DNA of 32,000 nucleotides from an uncultured archaeon. GTDB lineage: Archaea > Asgardarchaeota > Thorarchaeia > Thorarchaeales > Thorarchaeaceae. The notes under the pieces were generated by a model. That model saw only the letters and a list, made by a program, of their open reading frames with translations. It did no database searches and was not told the origin of the DNA. Location: positions 30,001 through 62,000 of the forward strand of contig CAYHAA010000017.1 of NCBI GenBank assembly GCA_964354495.1, in the 5' to 3' direction. The translations under genes and the position numbers were made by a program. Shown one piece after another: positions 8,094 through 14,639 of the stretch. Numbering within the stretch: the first letter of the stretch is position 1; each line of letters starts with the position of its first letter.

Positions 8094-9323
8094 TCACATG
8101 CCACCTTCCAGGCTCATCTTGATGGCATCGTCTATCGATTTCTGAAGTGTAGGTGGAAGATCTGGGACCTTCAACTTAACAAAGCCGCGAATGATGAGTG
8201 AAGTTGCCTCCTCTTCGTCCAACCCTCGGCTCATGAGATAACTGAGTTGTTCCGCTCCGACTTTCCCAATTGTAGCCTCGTGACTGAGCTCAGACCCCTC
8301 GGCCAGGGCAGCAAGCATAGGCACGGCTCTAATCACTGCTGAATTGCTGACAAGCAATCCATCGCACTCAAGCCTACCCTTTGTTTCGCTGGACAGGCCA
8401 ACCAAATCCCCCCGAGCGGTAATCTCGCACTCATCGGTCGCTATTGACCTTGAAATGACCTTGCCACTGGACTTGGTCGCTTCGAGACTCAGAGAACCTC
8501 CAATATCATACTTCGACTTCTTGCTTCCGTAGACAACCGAGTATAGGTCAGCCTTGGCTCCTGTTCCAATTAGCTTGACCTTGGGGAATGCTTGGATGGA
8601 CTTGGGAGAACTCAGTATTGCATAGCTTGAGATGAACGTGCCATTGTCCTCAACAAGAGTTGCCGTTCGCGGACGTACATCTGTCTTCTCACTCCACCTG
8701 TGAACCATGGTGAAAGTGAGCCGAGCCTTCTTCTTGACATAGAATTCTGACACTCCCAAATGCAGTGACTGCTCCACATTGGAGGGCGTCGCGCAACCTG
8801 TGATGACATGAAGTTCTGAGCCTTCTTCGGCTATGACAATATTATGGACATTCTGAACGAATCGGTTCTTCTTCAGTATCAGGCAACTCTGAACTGGCAT
8901 TTCGATTCTGGCTCCAGCAGCTGCCCGGACGAAGTAGCCATTGTACTGCTCTAGCTCACTTCTCGCTGTGTACTTATCTGTATCAACTGGTACAGCGTTC
9001 CAGAGATAGTCATGCAGCCAATCATATTTCTGAAGAGCCAAGTTCGTTGGTAAGACCTCAAGCCCTTTCTGTTGAATAAGAACATCTGCAAGGAGAGCTT
9101 CGTTGTCGAACTGTATGAAAGATCCCGAAACCCTCTCTTGTGAGGGGTCGAATCCCACCTCTCGTACCAGTGTACGATCCTTCTCTGAGAGGTCATCAAT
9201 TGATTCGAAGGCACCAAGTCTAGAGGAGGAGTATTCATACTTGTCCAGGTCTAAATCACTACCATATGGAGCTGTCTTCTCTTTTGCTGAACGTGCGCGT
9301 TTCTTGGTGTCGTCAGATGGCAT
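8094..9323 (-). CDS. sufB: SufB/SufD-family Fe-S scaffold (minimal SUF/SMS-type beta subunit)
   Basis: Beta-helix region with ITGCATP, ECDGLL and SHEATIGK (Cys/Glu positions typical of SufB), and YLMSRGL; directly downstream of sufC. Confidence 0.9.
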   Translation of the reverse strand: MPSDDTKKRARSAKEKTAPYGSDLDLDKYEYSSSRLGAFESIDDLSEKDRTLVREVGFDPSQERVSGSFIQFDNEALLADVLIQQKGLEVLPTNLALQKYDWLHDYLWNAVPVDTDKYTARSELEQYNGYFVRAAAGARIEMPVQSCLILKKNRFVQNVHNIVIAEEGSELHVITGCATPSNVEQSLHLGVSEFYVKKKARLTFTMVHRWSEKTDVRPRTATLVEDNGTFISSYAILSSPKSIQAFPKVKLIGTGAKADLYSVVYGSKKSKYDIGGSLSLEATKSSGKVISRSIATDECEITARGDLVGLSSETKGRLECDGLLVSNSAVIRAVPMLAALAEGSELSHEATIGKVGAEQLSYLMSRGLDEEEATSLIIRGFVKLKVPDLPPTLQKSIDDAIKMSLEGGM

Positions 9324-9336
9324 CAGATGGACCTCC

Positions 9337-10125
9337 TTATCCTGTCACTTCAGCCAAGAACTTCTCGTAGCCTTTCTCTTCTAATACAGGAATATCACTC
9401 ATGTCACCTGTGTAGACAAGTCTACCGCGCTGTAGTATGTAGACTGCATCCACCTCCAAGAACTCCAAGATATAGCGATGATGACTGATTATTACGAGGG
9501 TGACATCACGCTTCTCTTTGATTGCCTTGAGTTCTCTTCCGACTGTCTTGAGGGAGTCATAGTCAAGCCCACTGTCCGGCTCATCGAGGAACATTATCTT
9601 GGGGCGCATTGATAGAACTTGGAAGAGCTCGCTTCTCTTTGATTCGCCACCGGAGAATCCATCATTGAGGTCACGGTTTGCAAGATTCCTGATACCAAGT
9701 CTTTCAAAATCATCGTACAATATCTGCTTGCATGTACATGTTTCACCCATCAGGGCGTCGTGCACATCCGTACATTGGTAGTCAGGACAGACTCTACAGA
9801 TGAAATCATCGAGCTTGACACCCGATATCCGCGGGGGCGTTTGAAAAGCGTAGGCAATTCCCATCCGCGCACGCTCGGTAATCGATTTGTTCTGGATTGA
9901 TGTGCCATTGAAGAGAATATCGCCGCCGGTGACCTTGTACTCCGGCAAACCCATGATGGTCTTGGCAAGTGTGGACTTGCCAGAGGCGTTGGGCCCAAGA
10001 ATAGCATATACCTGCCCAGCTCGAAAAGCAAGATCCACTCCGACAAGGATTGGAATGCCGCTTACTTCGACCCGCAGGTCTCGTGTTTCGAGAAGGGGAT
10101 TATTATCCATTGAGATTGCCACCAT
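9337..10125 (-). CDS. sufC: Fe-S assembly ABC ATPase SufC
   Basis: Walker A GPNASGKS, Q-loop AFQTP, signature FSGGE, Walker B FLDEPDSGLD. Confidence 0.93.
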   Translation of the reverse strand: MVAISMDNNPLLETRDLRVEVSGIPILVGVDLAFRAGQVYAILGPNASGKSTLAKTIMGLPEYKVTGGDILFNGTSIQNKSITERARMGIAYAFQTPPRISGVKLDDFICRVCPDYQCTDVHDALMGETCTCKQILYDDFERLGIRNLANRDLNDGFSGGESKRSELFQVLSMRPKIMFLDEPDSGLDYDSLKTVGRELKAIKEKRDVTLVIISHHRYILEFLEVDAVYILQRGRLVYTGDMSDIPVLEEKGYEKFLAEVTG

Positions 10126-10314
10126 CAGAATCTATGAGCGTCATCGTTACGGATTGCTTCCATATGCAATTTCAGCCTCTTACTTTCTCGTATATGTACC
10201 AATTGTTTGAACTAAGAATCGAGATACAGATCGGTCTGCAATGTCAGACAGTTTGCTCTTCAAACATTATGCTTAAAACGACCTGCTGAATTCCGTCATT
10301 GCGGTGCATCACTA

Positions 10315-10782
10315 ATGAACGTACAACAGACTTTCGAGAAACTTGTTTCGCTTGCAATTCAGAGAGAGGAAGAATCATACCAGTTTTATATGAAGGCAGC
10401 CAAAGGCTCTGAATTCAAGCCATCAGCGAAACTACTCAAGGATCTAGCTCATCAAGAGGAAATTCATAAGAAGAAACTTCAGTCTGCTCAGAATGAGGGG
10501 GTCTGTCAAACATTCAAGTGCGGCACAGTAGAGGAACTTGAGAAGATGGATCTGAGTAGATATCTTGTCGATATTCCACTGGTGCCATCAGCCACTCCCC
10601 AAGAGGTACTCATAGTGGCAATCAAGAGAGAGGCTGCAGCACACAGTTTCTACAAATCTCTATCAGAACTGACTGGCAGCGGCAAACACCGCTCTGTATT
10701 CGAAATCCTGGCCAAAGAAGAGGAAGCACACAAGGATAGACTTCAGAATATGTATGACGACATCTTCCAGCCGGATATGTGA
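10315..10782 (+). CDS. Ferritin-like/rubrerythrin-family diiron protein (no rubredoxin domain)
   Basis: Duplicated pattern AIQREEESYQFY...LAHQEEIH and AIKREAAAHSFY...LAKEEEAH. Confidence 0.9.
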   Translation: MNVQQTFEKLVSLAIQREEESYQFYMKAAKGSEFKPSAKLLKDLAHQEEIHKKKLQSAQNEGVCQTFKCGTVEELEKMDLSRYLVDIPLVPSATPQEVLIVAIKREAAAHSFYKSLSELTGSGKHRSVFEILAKEEEAHKDRLQNMYDDIFQPDM

Positions 10783-10831
10783 GGAGAACCCCCAGACATC
10801 ATGATACGTAATAGCACGTGAGTAATCGTGA

Positions 10832-12112
10832 TTATAGCTCGTGAAGCTCAGGTGCCGCAATGAACGTCAGTCCACGTTTCGTCAGCTCCTCAGCTGTTCG
10901 ATTCAGTGCATGGTGCTTATCCAAGTAGTTCTGCAGAAGCAGAGGCATGTGCCCCGCTTTGAGGATGTCCTCTTTGGTTCGGAAGTAATCAAGGATATCG
11001 CTAGGATGTTCACGTACCGTTTCGTTCTCAATAACGCCGCCCTCGTGTTTTGCACTGATGTTCTTCACGTGATTTGCCAAATCAAGCAGGTCAGAAAGCC
11101 GGTCATACGGCTGCCGAACAATGGACTTGTAGGTTTCCGTAATGTGATGCTCGATTCGCACCACATCTTCAAAATCGAAGGACTTCCGGATTTGCGCGGC
11201 CACCTCTATGGTTTCTTTATTGACACTATTGGAGAGGTTGAATCCGATGAGAGGGCTTGTCCCATTAGGACGACTGAATAGTTTCGCCGTCATTAGCGTC
11301 CATAGACATGCATATGGATTGTCGTTGCCCATGAACACAGATATCTTGAACCCCATGTCGATACCGAGCTTATGCATCATGTAGCCGACTAGCACACTCC
11401 CGGGGTTGATATTGAGAACCTGTTGGACACCATACTTTGTATAATAATGCAAGAATTCGTCTGCCCACTTCAAGGGAAACTCATTCGGCATCCCAACGCC
11501 GCCGAAATAGCCGGTGATTGTCGCAGGACCGCCCAAATGGACATTCACTGGTGCTCCATCTGGACCTGGATAGGTGCCCTTGGTATCAAGCGTTTCAACA
11601 TATGAAGAACCGAATATCTGCATTGCTGCGGCAAACGCGATGACGTCATCATCTGCTGATTGTTCTGCCATTCGCCGAACCCTGATGAAGCGACTTGGCA
11701 TTATCTCATCCTTCTCTATAGCCTGTCTGGTTTCTGTGATGAGCCATGGAAAGTACTGGCATGCACTGATTTCAAGTGTAACAGCAAAACTATCATCGAA
11801 TTTCATGGAGTTTGCCTTGTCGCCGAGCACCCGCCGCCTATACTCAGGAATTGATATGAACACATGATTGTCACGCTGTTCTTGAAGCCACTGAAGATCT
11901 CTGATATACGGAGACTTCTTTGAGTCAAGCATTTTCAGTAGGTTATCGAGTTTGCGTGCCTCGCGTGCCTTTCTATTGATCTCTTTGACTCCTCCATACT
12001 TGTCGATCAAGACAAGAACATCGGTCACAAGTTGATTCTCATCGCTGAGAAAGAAATCATTGATTTCTCTTAGTTTGTCTTCATCAATCAGCAGTTTCTT
12101 TCTATTGGTCAT
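10832..12112 (-). CDS. Uncharacterised 426-aa soluble protein, possible TIM barrel
   Basis: Long ORF with protein-like composition and enzyme-like motifs (ETLDTKGT, HLGGPATITGYFGG, HHITET, KHEGG). No confident family assignment. Confidence 0.85.
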   Translation of the reverse strand: MTNRKKLLIDEDKLREINDFFLSDENQLVTDVLVLIDKYGGVKEINRKAREARKLDNLLKMLDSKKSPYIRDLQWLQEQRDNHVFISIPEYRRRVLGDKANSMKFDDSFAVTLEISACQYFPWLITETRQAIEKDEIMPSRFIRVRRMAEQSADDDVIAFAAAMQIFGSSYVETLDTKGTYPGPDGAPVNVHLGGPATITGYFGGVGMPNEFPLKWADEFLHYYTKYGVQQVLNINPGSVLVGYMMHKLGIDMGFKISVFMGNDNPYACLWTLMTAKLFSRPNGTSPLIGFNLSNSVNKETIEVAAQIRKSFDFEDVVRIEHHITETYKSIVRQPYDRLSDLLDLANHVKNISAKHEGGVIENETVREHPSDILDYFRTKEDILKAGHMPLLLQNYLDKHHALNRTAEELTKRGLTFIAAPELHEL

Positions 12113-12249
12113 TTCAATGCGCCACCTATCTAGTGCGGCATGCTACGGCAAGCACGATAGCACGAAGTGCTGAGCAGAGTGGAGCCTAAAAACCGTTCTG
12201 ACCACAGCTGGATTGCTAGGATTGCCCTCTGAACCAACATTCCAATTCC

Positions 12250-12834
12250 TCATTGGTCATGAGACTCCAATTCCTGAGTGTTCTCTTTGCTGTACCTCAA
12301 ATCTCGAAGGTAAGAGCGAACTATGGGACCTACCGTCAGCGAACCAAAGGAGCCTACAATGACCTGTATCGAGTTGATGGTCACCAGCTCAGTAAGAGCG
12401 ACTCCTATAGAATAGCCTAGGACAAGAACTTCTCCCAATAGGTAGCCCACCAACATGACACAGGAGGCAACTATGACAGCGATTATGTCCCATGGACTTA
12501 ACCTTGATTCTCGGCGCGTCCTGCTGCAGATAAGACCTACTGCCATTCCTTCAAAACCCTTCACAATCAATGTGATTGGGGCATACCAAGGCGCAAGTAT
12601 TAGGTCAGCAATGGCAGAACCAATCCCGCCTGCAACAAAGCCGCCAAGAGGCCCAAGAAGAAGCCCGCTCAGCATCACCAATACATCTCCAAGATTGAAG
12701 TAGCCACTCGTAGTTGGAAAGGGCACTACCAACACGACTGTTGCCACTGTTGTCAGGGCCGTTAGGATTGCGAGCAATGATAGATAGAGGGTCAAATTCG
12801 GATATCTCGGATGAAAGTACTCCATCGATCTCAT
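12250..12834 (-). CDS. ECF transporter S component
   Basis: PFPTTSGYFNLGD...GGIGSAIADL...WYAPITLIVKGFEG with about 5-6 TM segments. The likely start is ATG 12834 or 12825 rather than 12963. Confidence 0.88.
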   Translation of the reverse strand: MRSMEYFHPRYPNLTLYLSLLAILTALTTVATVVLVVPFPTTSGYFNLGDVLVMLSGLLLGPLGGFVAGGIGSAIADLILAPWYAPITLIVKGFEGMAVGLICSRTRRESRLSPWDIIAVIVASCVMLVGYLLGEVLVLGYSIGVALTELVTINSIQVIVGSFGSLTVGPIVRSYLRDLRYSKENTQELESHDQ

Positions 12835-12987
12835 CTTCCATACGCTGGACGTTTCAACGAAACGACAGAAAAGAAACAGCATATAACTCTGAGCCAAGAC
12901 AAAGAGAAGTATTTTAACAAGAGCTGCGCATAGGAGGGGATGGGTAGTTGAACAAACTCCCACTTCCTATACGAGAGGTAGGGAAAA

Positions 12988-13368
12988 ATGAGCCAAAAAT
13001 GGATACAGACTGCTGATTGGAAGACCGAGAAACATATCCCTGTGATTGAAATAGAGAAGGTCAAAGATGGTCGGGTCAATGTGAAAGTCACCGTTGGAAA
13101 GGAGATCCCGCATCCGAATACAACAGCTCATCACATAAAATGGATTGACTTGTTCTTATGGCCGGACGATGAGAAATTCCCAGTTGAGATAGGTTATGTC
13201 AGTTTTGATGCGCACGGAGAATCAGCCAAGGGGGCAGATACAAGCTCTGTGTACACAGAGCCATGCGCAGTGTTCACATTCATGACCAAGAAAGCGGGAA
13301 CTCTGATGGCGACCGCCTACTGCAACATTCATGGGCTTTGGAAGAGTGAGAAAGAGCTCAAGCTCTAG
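12988..13368 (+). CDS. sor: Superoxide reductase (neelaredoxin/class II SOR)
   Basis: EKHIP, HPNTTAHHIKWI and CNIHG iron ligands; no desulforedoxin domain. Confidence 0.95.
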   Translation: MSQKWIQTADWKTEKHIPVIEIEKVKDGRVNVKVTVGKEIPHPNTTAHHIKWIDLFLWPDDEKFPVEIGYVSFDAHGESAKGADTSSVYTEPCAVFTFMTKKAGTLMATAYCNIHGLWKSEKELKL

Positions 13369-13609
13369 TTTCACCAAGTTCAGTGACAGCGGTTGGAGCT
13401 TGCTCACAGAATAGAGTGGCAGGCTTCCACTGCTCTGCTTTTCATCCATACTGGGAGAACCAAATTCAGTTGCCTTCAGAGTCCTCGAAGGCTTCAAATG
13501 GGAGAATCATTCCTCACGGGCGTTTCAAGTTCCAAGGAGCACAATTCCGGAGAGAAGAATCTCCTCCATATCACCATACAGCCCGTCGACAGTGTCTTGA
13601 AACTAGTCA

Positions 13610-13659
13610 CATCTTGTGACTTCATCTTGTGTCCCTCAAGAGTGGCTTCGCTATATATA
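13610..13659 (+). promoter_or_regulatory. TATA box (TATATATA 13652-13659) with an upstream CATCTTGTG direct repeat
   Basis: CATCTTGTG at 13610-13618 and 13623-13631; AGTCAC/GTGACT inverted repeat around 13605-13621. ATG 13689 lies 30 nt downstream of the TATA box. Confidence 0.55.
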
Positions 13660-13688
13660 CTCTGTCTGAGCAGTATTTCTCGTGAACT

Positions 13689-13796
13689 ATGATGGCTCTA
13701 GCAACTAACAACCGAACGATATCTGCGCTGAAGAACAAGACCGGTCGAATTCTCTCGACCGAGGCAATCACCTACGCCTACCAGTATAGGAGGTAA
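13689..13796 (+). CDS. Small peptide P1, 35 aa (MMALATNNRTISALKNKTGRILSTEAITYAYQYRR)
   Basis: Positioned for leaderless translation after the TATA box; paralogous to P2 with mostly synonymous DNA differences. Confidence 0.75.
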   Translation: MMALATNNRTISALKNKTGRILSTEAITYAYQYRR

Positions 13797-13802
13797 AGAA
13801 TA

Positions 13803-13889
13803 ATGACTCAAGCTAAGAGAACAATCAGGAATTACCACGATAAGAGAATCTCCACTGATGCAATCACCTATGCATACATGTACAGGTAG
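13803..13889 (+). CDS. Small peptide P2, 28 aa (MTQAKRTIRNYHDKRISTDAITYAYMYR)
   Basis: SD AGGAGGT is supplied by the end of P1; 10 of 12 residues are identical to P1 in the C-terminal motif. Confidence 0.75.
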   Translation: MTQAKRTIRNYHDKRISTDAITYAYMYR

Positions 13890-13895
13890 ATCACG

Positions 13896-14003
13896 ATGAC
13901 CCCCGAGAAAATTGTTCTTGAAAATCACTCTAGCTCGCCCAACGACAATGCCAAGCGTTGTTGCATGACTCCTGAGGAAGTGCTCATGCTCGAAGCAACC
14001 TGA
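13896..14003 (+). CDS. Small peptide P3, 35 aa (MTPEKIVLENHSSSPNDNAKRCCMTPEEVLMLEAT)
   Basis: Starts 6 nt after the P2 stop; internal MTPE duplication; fills the gap up to the convergent gene. Confidence 0.45.
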   Translation: MTPEKIVLENHSSSPNDNAKRCCMTPEEVLMLEAT

Positions 14004-14036
14004 GCACTTCATTCTTTGTTTTCCGTACTTCAATCA

Positions 14037-14639
14037 CTACATATCTGCCTTCACGATCCAGCTGACAAGCTCAGAATTCAGAGGATTCTCCTTGACGAAC
14101 TCCTCGCGATAGGTTCCGCTCTTGAAGGCAAGAAGAACATTCTGCATCCCTCCATCGAAACCCACAATTCTCACTGCTCTTGCAAGCGAATTGGATCGGA
14201 AGGCAATCACTGTTGCAATCAGAGACACTGCAAAGATTACAGTAAAGGTGAATACCCATGGAGAGATAGAAGTCCCTCTTGATATCGAATCGCCCAACAA
14301 CAACAGACCGAAGAACATGAAAGCCATCGCAAGTCCATCTACTATGAGGCACAATGATTTGTAGCGATCTTCCCCCTCGTCGGTGTAGTAATGATCAGCA
14401 CATACTTGGATAGGCAGAACTCTCAGGTTAGGTTGTGGAATTCCTTGCTTTCTCCGAACCCGAGGGTCAAAGGAGGGGTCCCATTCACGTCGTAAGTACT
14501 GAGGCCTTCCGGATACAATGGTCAGGCGCGATGTTGTTGTTGCAGGATTTCCGCAGACAGGACATACTCTCGGGAAACGTGCTCTGGAGATGTCTACACG
14601 AACAATGGGTTCATCAAGGTAGAACTTCCTCGGGCTCAT
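14037..14639 (-). CDS. Membrane protein with N-terminal Zn-ribbon-like motif and two TM helices
   Basis: CPVC...CxxH motif, then two hydrophobic segments and a soluble C-terminal tail. Confidence 0.8.
   Translation of the reverse strand: MSPRKFYLDEPIVRVDISRARFPRVCPVCGNPATTTSRLTIVSGRPQYLRREWDPSFDPRVRRKQGIPQPNLRVLPIQVCADHYYTDEGEDRYKSLCLIVDGLAMAFMFFGLLLLGDSISRGTSISPWVFTFTVIFAVSLIATVIAFRSNSLARAVRIVGFDGGMQNVLLAFKSGTYREEFVKENPLNSELVSWIVKADM

Follow-up and report, generated by a model that had tools for sequence, protein, structure and literature searches.

A probable family of tandem micropeptide operons in Thorarchaeaceae

What do two tandem open reading frames (ORFs) of 35 and 28 residues, at positions 13689-13796 and 13803-13889 of a 32,000-nucleotide stretch of archaeal DNA, encode, if they encode anything at all? 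The stretch (hereafter the window) is C17:30001-62000 of a 3.3-Mb Thorarchaeaceae genome, and an original prediction made from its letters alone had described the ORFs as an unannotated pair of paralogous micropeptides behind a TATA box and under apparent purifying selection. Asgard archaea, to which this family belongs, are the closest known prokaryotic relatives of eukaryotes; to our knowledge almost nothing is known of their small proteins, and gene callers often miss genes of micropeptide size. Both ORFs are present after a TATA box, with the start of the first corrected to 13692, and the pair is real, but a third conserved gene and the complete transcription unit had been overlooked. Window 13606-14022 is a complete, self-contained transcription unit in which three tandem micro-genes, P1, P2 and P3, occupy 13692-14003 of the forward strand (Table 1) and very probably constitute a real translated operon. 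It belongs to a multicopy micropeptide family that selection maintains across the clade and that comes with a promoter, an operator and a terminator of its own and a conserved regulator nearby.

Coding status and anatomy of the operon

P1 and P2 are members of one peptide class, here termed Y-peptides, built from a short N-terminus (MAL-A/T-K/T), a variable middle rich in Lys, Arg, Asn and Thr, and a C-terminal core S-T-(D/E)-A-(I/L)-x-(Y/H)-A-Y-x-Y-R, usually with a second Arg; the variable basic N-terminal part and conserved Tyr-rich C-terminal core originally described are thereby confirmed. A repeat search finds a 38-nt direct repeat of 79% identity covering the P1/P2 pair, and both genes carry the shared upstream RTI...RI that had been pointed out. 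Direct comparison of their 12-codon cores reproduces the predicted differences, namely five synonymous third positions and two non-synonymous codons. P1-type and P2-type genes also preserve MAL... and the core while spelling them with different codons.

Codon statistics were compiled over a 13-codon core in 53 distinct Y-peptide members. Entropy at codon positions 1, 2 and 3 is 0.88, 0.60 and 1.44, Ala is spelled by all four GCN codons, and Arg by AGG, CGG, CGT, CGC and AGA. The ratio of non-synonymous to synonymous substitution rates (omega) was computed for five orthologous cassettes of equal length. Of the ten P1 pairs, eight fall at 0.06-0.47 and the two with the least divergence lie at about 1; the values are 0.04-0.53 for P2 and 0.13-0.34 for P3. 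The pooled ratio of non-synonymous to synonymous change (pN/pS) in these cassettes is 0.33 in the coding frame versus 1.15-1.39 in four other frames; the fifth, an antisense frame that has its wobble positions in common with the coding frame, contains 4-7 stops. No internal stop occurs in any listed Y-peptide or P3 match. Judged from these codon patterns, selection clearly acts on the peptide and not on the DNA, and the proposed purifying selection is borne out.

The contrary reading, that the locus is a repeat element of DNA or RNA, a leader or upstream ORF with a regulatory role, or the 111-residue antisense ORF at 13698-14033, is hardly credible: the 85 bp upstream are conserved even more than the ORFs and the antisense ORF does run across the cassette in the window, but codon periodicity and synonymous turnover mark the forward frame, including the differing codons by which P1-type and P2-type genes preserve the same residues, the antisense-ORF frame has a pN/pS of 1.34 and 3-4 stops in three of four orthologues compared, neither Rfam (E up to 1) nor a tRNA scan returned anything for the region, and there is no downstream gene to regulate, the next gene being convergent and a terminator following P3. 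The antisense ORF was accordingly rejected as a gene, being broken in orthologues, and an attenuator leader or upstream ORF was rejected in view of the terminator-like hairpin after P3, the convergent next gene and the variation of neighbours between copies.

In the ORF list the longest P1 frame, 13689-13796, encodes 35 residues (MMALATNNRTISALKNKTGRILSTEAITYAYQYRR, C-terminal part STEAITYAYQYRR). Its first ATG is replaced by ATT, ATC or ATA in orthologues, and the P1 start is therefore placed at 13692 (MAL...). P1 scores E 3e-15 to 5e-19 against hidden Markov models (HMMs) of the family. As had been noticed, the two Arg codons and stop that end P1 (AGGAGGTAA, 13788-13796) double as the Shine-Dalgarno sequence of P2, 6 nt ahead of its ATG. 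In relatives, GGAGG (as CGGAGG or AGGAGG) is kept in the last P1 codons and the P1-to-P2 spacer is 4-7 nt in all cassettes. Since the P2 Shine-Dalgarno sequence lies inside the last P1 codons, the three peptides should be co-produced. In the cassettes tabulated, the spacer from P2 to P3 is always 6 nt, with P3 in the frame of P2, and the P2 stop is TAG in 24 of 25 three-gene cassettes. The P3 C-terminus, EEVLMLEAT, falls in the only conserved part of this acidic peptide class, (V/L/I)T-x-E-E-V-L-(M/L)-(L/W)-E-A-T, after which we call its members EAT-peptides. Tryptic peptides predicted from the operon's products include ILSTEAITYAYQYR and ISTDAITYAYMYR.

Table 1. Features of the transcription unit, in window coordinates
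Feature	Position	Strand	Remarks
Operator-like palindrome	13606..13620		GTCACATCTTGTGAC (GTCACA-N3-TGTGAC); nearly invariant in 27 A-type promoters from many genomes; flanks unalignable
Third half-site	13628..13633	+	TGTGTC (TGTGAC in most relatives), 7 nt past the palindrome; conserved column block in the 27-promoter alignment
TATA box	13652..13659	+	TATATATA; conserved GTGGCTTCGC just before
P1	13692..13796	+	Basic Y-peptide, 34 aa, MALATNNRTISALKNKTGRILSTEAITYAYQYRR; in-frame ATG also at 13689
Shine-Dalgarno sequence for P2	13788..13793	+	AGGAGG, made by the final two Arg codons of P1
P2	13803..13889	+	Basic Y-peptide, 28 aa, MTQAKRTIRNYHDKRISTDAITYAYMYR, TAG stop; C-terminal part STDAITYAYMYR
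P3	13896..14003	+	Acidic EAT-peptide, 35 aa, MTPEKIVLENHSSSPNDNAKRCCMTPEEVLMLEAT; begins MTPEK, C-terminal part CCMTPEEVLMLEAT
Terminator-like element	13977..14022	+	Perfect 10-bp hairpin GAAGTGCTCA / TGAGCACTTC (13977-13986 / 14001-14010) and T-rich run 14012-14022; spans the P3 stop

Both arms of the terminator hairpin are kept in two orthologues (L007 and L008), and the next gene, encoding a Zn-ribbon membrane protein (14037-14639), is convergent to P3; the unit is therefore self-contained. As a separate observation, the 10 nt before the P1 start (TCGTGAACTA, 13680-13689) are 90% complementary to the junction of P2 stop and P3 start (TAGATCACGA, 13887-13896), and in orthologue L007 one pair is changed on both sides, from C-G to T-A. 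The mRNA may pair over this distance, or the complementarity may only follow from likeness to Shine-Dalgarno or 16S rRNA-tail sequences.

Distribution, gene contexts and promoters

The distribution of the family was surveyed by HMM searches of whole genomes in an even sample of the phylum, comprising 76 Thorarchaeaceae genomes and 224 genomes from 29 other families. The outcome named beforehand as counting against the pair was a lack of homologues in related genomes, or homologues with broken frames. Y-peptides instead occur in 68 of the 76 Thorarchaeaceae genomes, with about 400 open-frame matches and 1-12 copies per genome, versus none of the 224 others, a contrast that chance cannot account for. 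P3 relatives were found in 43 of the 76 and again in none of the 224, and adjoin a Y-peptide match wherever coordinates are comparable. In another genome set the HMM matched 35 of 36 family genomes, and each genome sampled from the genus had 4-12 matches with open frames. A strict back-translated DNA pattern, run against 185,579 species genomes (one each), matched 26 stretches, 25 of them on contigs labelled Thorarchaeota, Promethearchaeota or unclassified archaeal metagenome-assembled genomes; the remaining match, in Undibacterium, was taken as chance. From these sequence surveys the Y-peptide/EAT operon family appears restricted to Thorarchaeaceae.

Among 1.84 billion representative proteins there are 49 matches, mostly stand-alone peptides of 29-38 residues; about ten are longer through upstream start calls or TAG read-through. 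Two library matches, P0003 (1927 aa) and P0024 (229 aa, on a 70-Mb, presumably eukaryotic contig), were set aside as unrelated repeat proteins with summed weak matches. The description of the pair as unannotated stands, in that a set of 15 billion predicted proteins lacks P1, P2 and P3 of the window; it does contain, without a name, the homologues of P2 and P3 encoded on contig C16 of this genome. The family had not been recognised originally, and it finds no match to anything known in Pfam, NCBIfam or the representative library: Pfam and NCBIfam gave no match for P1, P2 or P3 even at E 10, the best ESM Atlas score was 0.84, below the meaningful level, and full-text literature searches, motif strings included, found nothing on this micropeptide family. 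The case shows that small ORFs in Asgard genomes need family-aware calling.

This genome encodes eight Y-peptides at five loci, namely the window locus on C17, C3:180929-181135, C16:45107-45435 (with its own P3 homologue), C9 and C1. Across 59 loci we counted 69 cassettes, of which 27 are a single Y-peptide, 25 are Y-Y-EAT, 12 are Y-Y and five are of other types.

Two kinds of locus recur. The window carries an A-type locus, flanked in 13 loci by superoxide reductase upstream and by the Zn-ribbon protein and a GNAT gene downstream. The synteny with these three genes that had been proposed for examination is thus found in orthologues of the window locus (13 loci), but the other copies (on C3, C9 and C1, for example) have other neighbours, and synteny was discarded as a functional clue, being merely the orthology of one locus. 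At the B-type locus (25 loci, C16 among them) a PadR/HTH_20-like protein of 248-291 residues is encoded divergently about 290 bp upstream, a UbiE-like methyltransferase gene is convergent and, further out, there are a TrmB-family regulator and an OPT transporter. The divergent regulator (L003:314-1060 on the reverse strand, equivalent to C16:44066-44809, and 24 orthologous loci) shows weak matches to HTH_20 and PadR only; it is present in 73 of the 76 Thorarchaeaceae genomes, with strong matches elsewhere in two genomes only. Some genera have peptides too diverged for the HMM, such as MSSSKTNNKQKGARRKISTQAVAMAYFNR, and these still stand head-to-head with this helix-turn-helix (HTH) protein; another example is a complete triplet that ends in ...IAEVLAWEVT. 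We therefore take the B-type locus as ancestral, and the window copy as a genus-level duplicate under a different operator. Overall, the recurrent neighbours are the HTH regulator, UbiE-like methyltransferase, superoxide reductase, Zn-ribbon membrane protein, GNAT and TrmB; only some loci have an ABC ATPase and the OPT transporter, at a distance of 2.4-2.5 kb.

Beside the cassette in the window lies a cluster of oxidative-stress and Fe-S genes (8094-13368) that includes SufBD, SufC, a rubrerythrin-domain protein and an ECF riboflavin S-component; the superoxide reductase (desulfoferrodoxin) gene of this cluster is at 12988-13368.

About 85 bp upstream of P1 are nearly identical among genomes, and further upstream there is no alignment. 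Of 22 genomes sampled from the genus, 20 carry the full A-type promoter module, third half-site included, with 1-5 copies each, versus no match for a reversed control pattern. Across the 30 loci examined, wherever a module has sequence downstream, the ATG that opens a MAL... peptide follows the TATA box at exactly 32 nt, and the 5' untranslated region is therefore very short; from the usual archaeal TATA-to-start spacing, transcription would begin near 13682. In B-type promoters the palindrome is a different one, GGTTKG-N5-CAAACC, directly next to the TATA box. Libraries labelled as RNA, from three studies, contain three short contigs that stay entirely inside 13684-13995, ending before 13996, and one DNA contig crosses both flanks of the operon; the RNA-library contigs are a weak hint of transcription.

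The A-type layout of operator and TATA box (GTCACAACTTGTGAC, TTCATTTTGTGAC, TTATATATAC) also occurs elsewhere in this genome, at C4:55832-55846 (L076:1033-1047). There it precedes a gene for a 413-residue bactofilin-domain protein (L076:1122-2363; PF04519, E 5.5e-12), and a gene for a 137-residue HTH_45 winged-helix protein ends immediately upstream. In view of this shared layout, the A-type peptide cassettes and the gene for this cytoskeletal polymer may have a common regulator. Candidates for the factor at the A-type operator are this HTH_45 protein and the TrmB-family protein close to the C16-type locus, and for the B-type operator the divergent PadR/HTH_20-like protein.

Predicted peptide structure and possible roles

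Over the core columns, the conservation moment of the Y-peptides peaks at 100 degrees per residue (6.5, versus 0.2 at 180 degrees), and the core is therefore read as an alpha-helix with one conserved face, not as a beta-strand. The two variable core positions are four residues apart. Ala26, the sole invariant core residue, forms with Ala30, four residues on, a small-residue stripe flanked by Ile27, Tyr31, Tyr33 and Arg34, a face that looks like a tight helix-packing surface. AlphaFold2 models P1 (53-sequence alignment) as a single helix over residues 2-31 with a mean pLDDT of 71, rising in the conserved core to 79 over residues 21-30 and 77 over 31-34. P1 has a net charge of +5 and an isoelectric point (pI) of 10.5, and Y-peptides average +5 and pI 10.3, with a grand average of hydropathy (GRAVY) of -0.75, a hydrophobic fraction of 0.33 and an N-terminal half rich in Asn, Thr, Lys and Arg. 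P3-type peptides average a net charge of -2.5, pI 5.3 and GRAVY about -0.7 (window P3, net charge -3), and the charges of P1/P2 and P3 are thus complementary.

We favour the reading that these are cytoplasmic helical microproteins, two basic and one acidic, that are made together and bind each other or a conserved target, a statement to which, taken as a whole, we give an even chance. In this mechanism, a TATA promoter guarded by the palindromic operator would yield an mRNA of ~340 nt with almost no leader, from which P1, P2 and P3 would be translated in series across 6-nt spacers. The peptides would remain in the cytoplasm and act as small helical binding subunits, the basic Y-peptides docking via their conserved helical face onto each other, onto acidic P3 or onto a conserved cellular target. 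Dedicated transcription factors would switch peptide production; the ancestral copy of the operon stands head-to-head with a clade-specific winged-helix regulator. The cytoplasmic location, the binding between peptides and the nature of the target are what we infer. The family makes a concrete and cheap experimental target, its peptides being chemically synthesisable, and their partners, any toxicity and the regulators of the two operator types can be studied without the uncultured host.

Two sequence patterns bear on contact between the peptides. In 29 distinct cassettes, the residue ahead of EAT in P3 varies with core position 28 of the first Y-peptide: where it is Trp, that position holds Gly, Ser, Ala or Val and in no case Thr or Tyr, and where it is Leu or Met, the position holds Thr, Ala or Tyr and in no case Gly. 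Second, a fourth class of micropeptide of ~40 residues, the SGH type (M..SER.V....SD....LWS.SGH..G...SE...P(V/L)T.., also given as M..SER...W..SGH...VTNL), trails Y-peptides with TVVR, SFVR or SSLR tails and there replaces the EAT-peptides; it is found on C9 at about 82060-82190 of the reverse strand, downstream of the Y-peptide at C9:82157-82258, and at loci L080, L083, L086-L088, L098 and L105. This suggests partner peptides specific to the tail, and together the covariation and the SGH class are weak hints that favour direct contact between Y-peptide and partner. Complex modelling is uninformative on binding either way: P1 with P3 gave a score of 0.03, and AlphaFold2 on a P1-P2-P3 read-through chain (two stops as Gly, 12 naturally paired sequences) gave a pLDDT of 55 and a predicted template modelling score (pTM) of 0.21, with helices only at the conserved cores and no confident bundle.

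Several points weigh against the favoured reading. The peptides contain no recognisable domain; the evidence for a transcript consists of assembled contigs only, and two of the three RNA-labelled libraries are probably DNA. The covariation at position 28 rests mostly on two deep lineages, which amounts to few independent events. With 27 of the 69 cassettes being a single Y-peptide without P3, the family in general cannot depend on an obligatory P1-P2-P3 complex. Lastly, the many copies per genome, the patchy sets of partners and the middles that diverge fast fit genes for conflict or signalling better than they fit housekeeping regulators.

These same features invite a reading as a conflict module of the toxin-antitoxin or effector-immunity kind, in which the basic Y-peptide would be harmful, for instance by binding nucleic acid or the ribosome, and the EAT or SGH peptide would neutralise it at a translationally coupled ratio. 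We consider this unlikely. Type II toxin-antitoxin systems are likewise small, self-contained multicopy cassettes with coupled, charge-complementary products under tight promoter control, and the Y-peptide cassettes do sit between unrelated genes in 1-12 copies per genome with variable partners, the class of partner follows the type of Y-peptide tail, and the promoter module has spread within one genus. The 27 lone-Y cassettes, however, lack a candidate neutraliser, so that an antitoxin-like partner is absent from many; the products are single predicted helices of ~30 residues that resemble no known fold or family of toxins or antitoxins (Pfam and NCBIfam; PADLOC was not scanned), the gene order and the regulator, a separate divergent gene, are unlike classic type II systems, no viral contig matched the Y-peptide motif pattern, and the synteny of the ancestral locus is stable across the whole family.

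A related proposal, which we regard as an equally slim prospect, is that the cassettes are a class of diversifying, partner-matched micropeptide systems, new in archaea, in which the Y-peptide would be the effector, its tail type (YRR versus TVVR-like) would set the choice of EAT or SGH partner, and an operator would switch a device used between cells, in self/non-self recognition or as toxin and antidote. In a sub-variant, programmed read-through of the conserved in-frame TAG would yield a fused P2-P3 microprotein of ~66 residues.

Slightly less likely again are precursors of modified or exported peptides, whether ribosomally synthesized and post-translationally modified peptides (RiPPs), signals or bacteriocin-like products, in which an enzyme whose gene lies elsewhere in the genome would cross-link the Tyr/His-x-Tyr-x-Tyr core or process it in another way. 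The precursor or signalling role that had been suggested gained no supporting result. RiPP precursors typically come as tandem paralogous genes and in several dispersed copies, the core has aromatics at i, i+2 and i+4 with Tyr/His interchange at one position, and the OPT oligopeptide transporter lies ~2.5 kb from the ancestral locus in 10 loci. Among known precursors, PqqA and those of the biarylitide/cittilin type (with Tyr-x-Tyr/His cross-link motifs) are similarly very short ORFs, often tandem or multicopy, with a C-terminal motif containing Glu/Asp-x3-Tyr and i, i+2 aromatics. Yet no maturase is co-located with the cassettes: the absence noted originally holds both in the window, with no modifying enzyme within ~8 kb, and among the recurrent neighbours scanned, where the 15 families covered, drawn from the 19 commonest of the 59 loci, include no radical-SAM, YcaO, lanthipeptide, P450, ATP-grasp or peptidase gene. 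The peptides are hydrophilic and have no signal peptide or double-glycine leader, and what is conserved is a C-terminal part with a helical face, not a leader ahead of a variable core. A PqqA-like reading was rejected, as the Glu and Tyr that PqqA needs for its PqqE cross-link are not invariant: the first position of the Glu-x3-Tyr motif is Asp in 30, Glu in 12 and Gln in four of the 53 members, others having residues such as Lys, Phe and Tyr, and the second is Tyr in 27, His in 23 and Phe in three.

Tandem leaderless peptide operons such as aureocin A70 aurABCD, enterocin L50A/B and staphylococcal PSM-alpha (phenol-soluble modulins) are the nearest comparators in architecture, with several tandem paralogues of ~30 codons in one short unit, no leader or signal, and cationic, predicted helical products. 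Their peptides are hydrophobic, amphipathic and membrane-active, whereas the Thorarchaeal ones are strongly hydrophilic; their genes lie beside those for ABC exporters or immunity, of which there are none among the scanned neighbours of the Thorarchaeal cassettes; and the Thorarchaeal operon has an acidic third peptide and no sequence similarity to them. The Y-peptide/EAT family matches no described family, although its general kind, short operons of tandem paralogous micropeptides, is already known.

Very unlikely, finally, is a role in gating the proteasome, in which the Met-Tyr-Arg end of P2 (...YMYR) would act as a hydrophobic-Tyr-X (HbYX) tail for the pockets of the 20S alpha-ring, and P1, with its extra Arg, would be inactive or a competitor. 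HbYX tails end PAN, Rpt subunits and Cdc48, short peptides with the HbYX C-terminus of PAN are able to open the 20S gate in vitro, and in this genome PAN ends ...SMYC and one Cdc48 ...SMYG, so that Met-Tyr-X is the local form. As the last three residues, hydrophobic-Tyr-X is present in P2 (MYR) and absent in P1 (YRR). HbYX as a family-wide rule was rejected on column statistics: no core column varies more than the hydrophobic position (entropy 2.9, with Thr, Ile, Gln, Lys and other residues), 39 of 53 members have a second Arg after Tyr-Arg and others end in TVVR, SLR, RRS or REV, so that Tyr is usually not penultimate, and conservation reaches back over 12 residues upstream and is periodic as in a helix, more than a docking tail of three residues would account for.

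Apparent fusion proteins of P2 and P3 (69-84 aa; P0016, P0023, P0034 and P0051 in the representative library) were not accepted as evidence of gene fusion. P0016 translates only with TAG read as Gln and is a gene-caller artefact, and P0023, P0034 and P0051 show the same junction Gln. TAG ends 42% of long ORFs in this genome, and aragorn, run without intron handling, reported 14 tRNAs, none with anticodon CUA. When an alternative genetic code is chosen automatically on short contigs, false fusion proteins arise in large protein collections. Two minor observations concern stop codons. Aragorn reports a tRNA-Sec (anticodon TCA) in this genome, at coordinates 73844-73934, and on a metagenome scaffold from the European Nucleotide Archive (L069:1142-1354) a public 70-residue gene call joins P2 and P3 only through TAG read as Gln.

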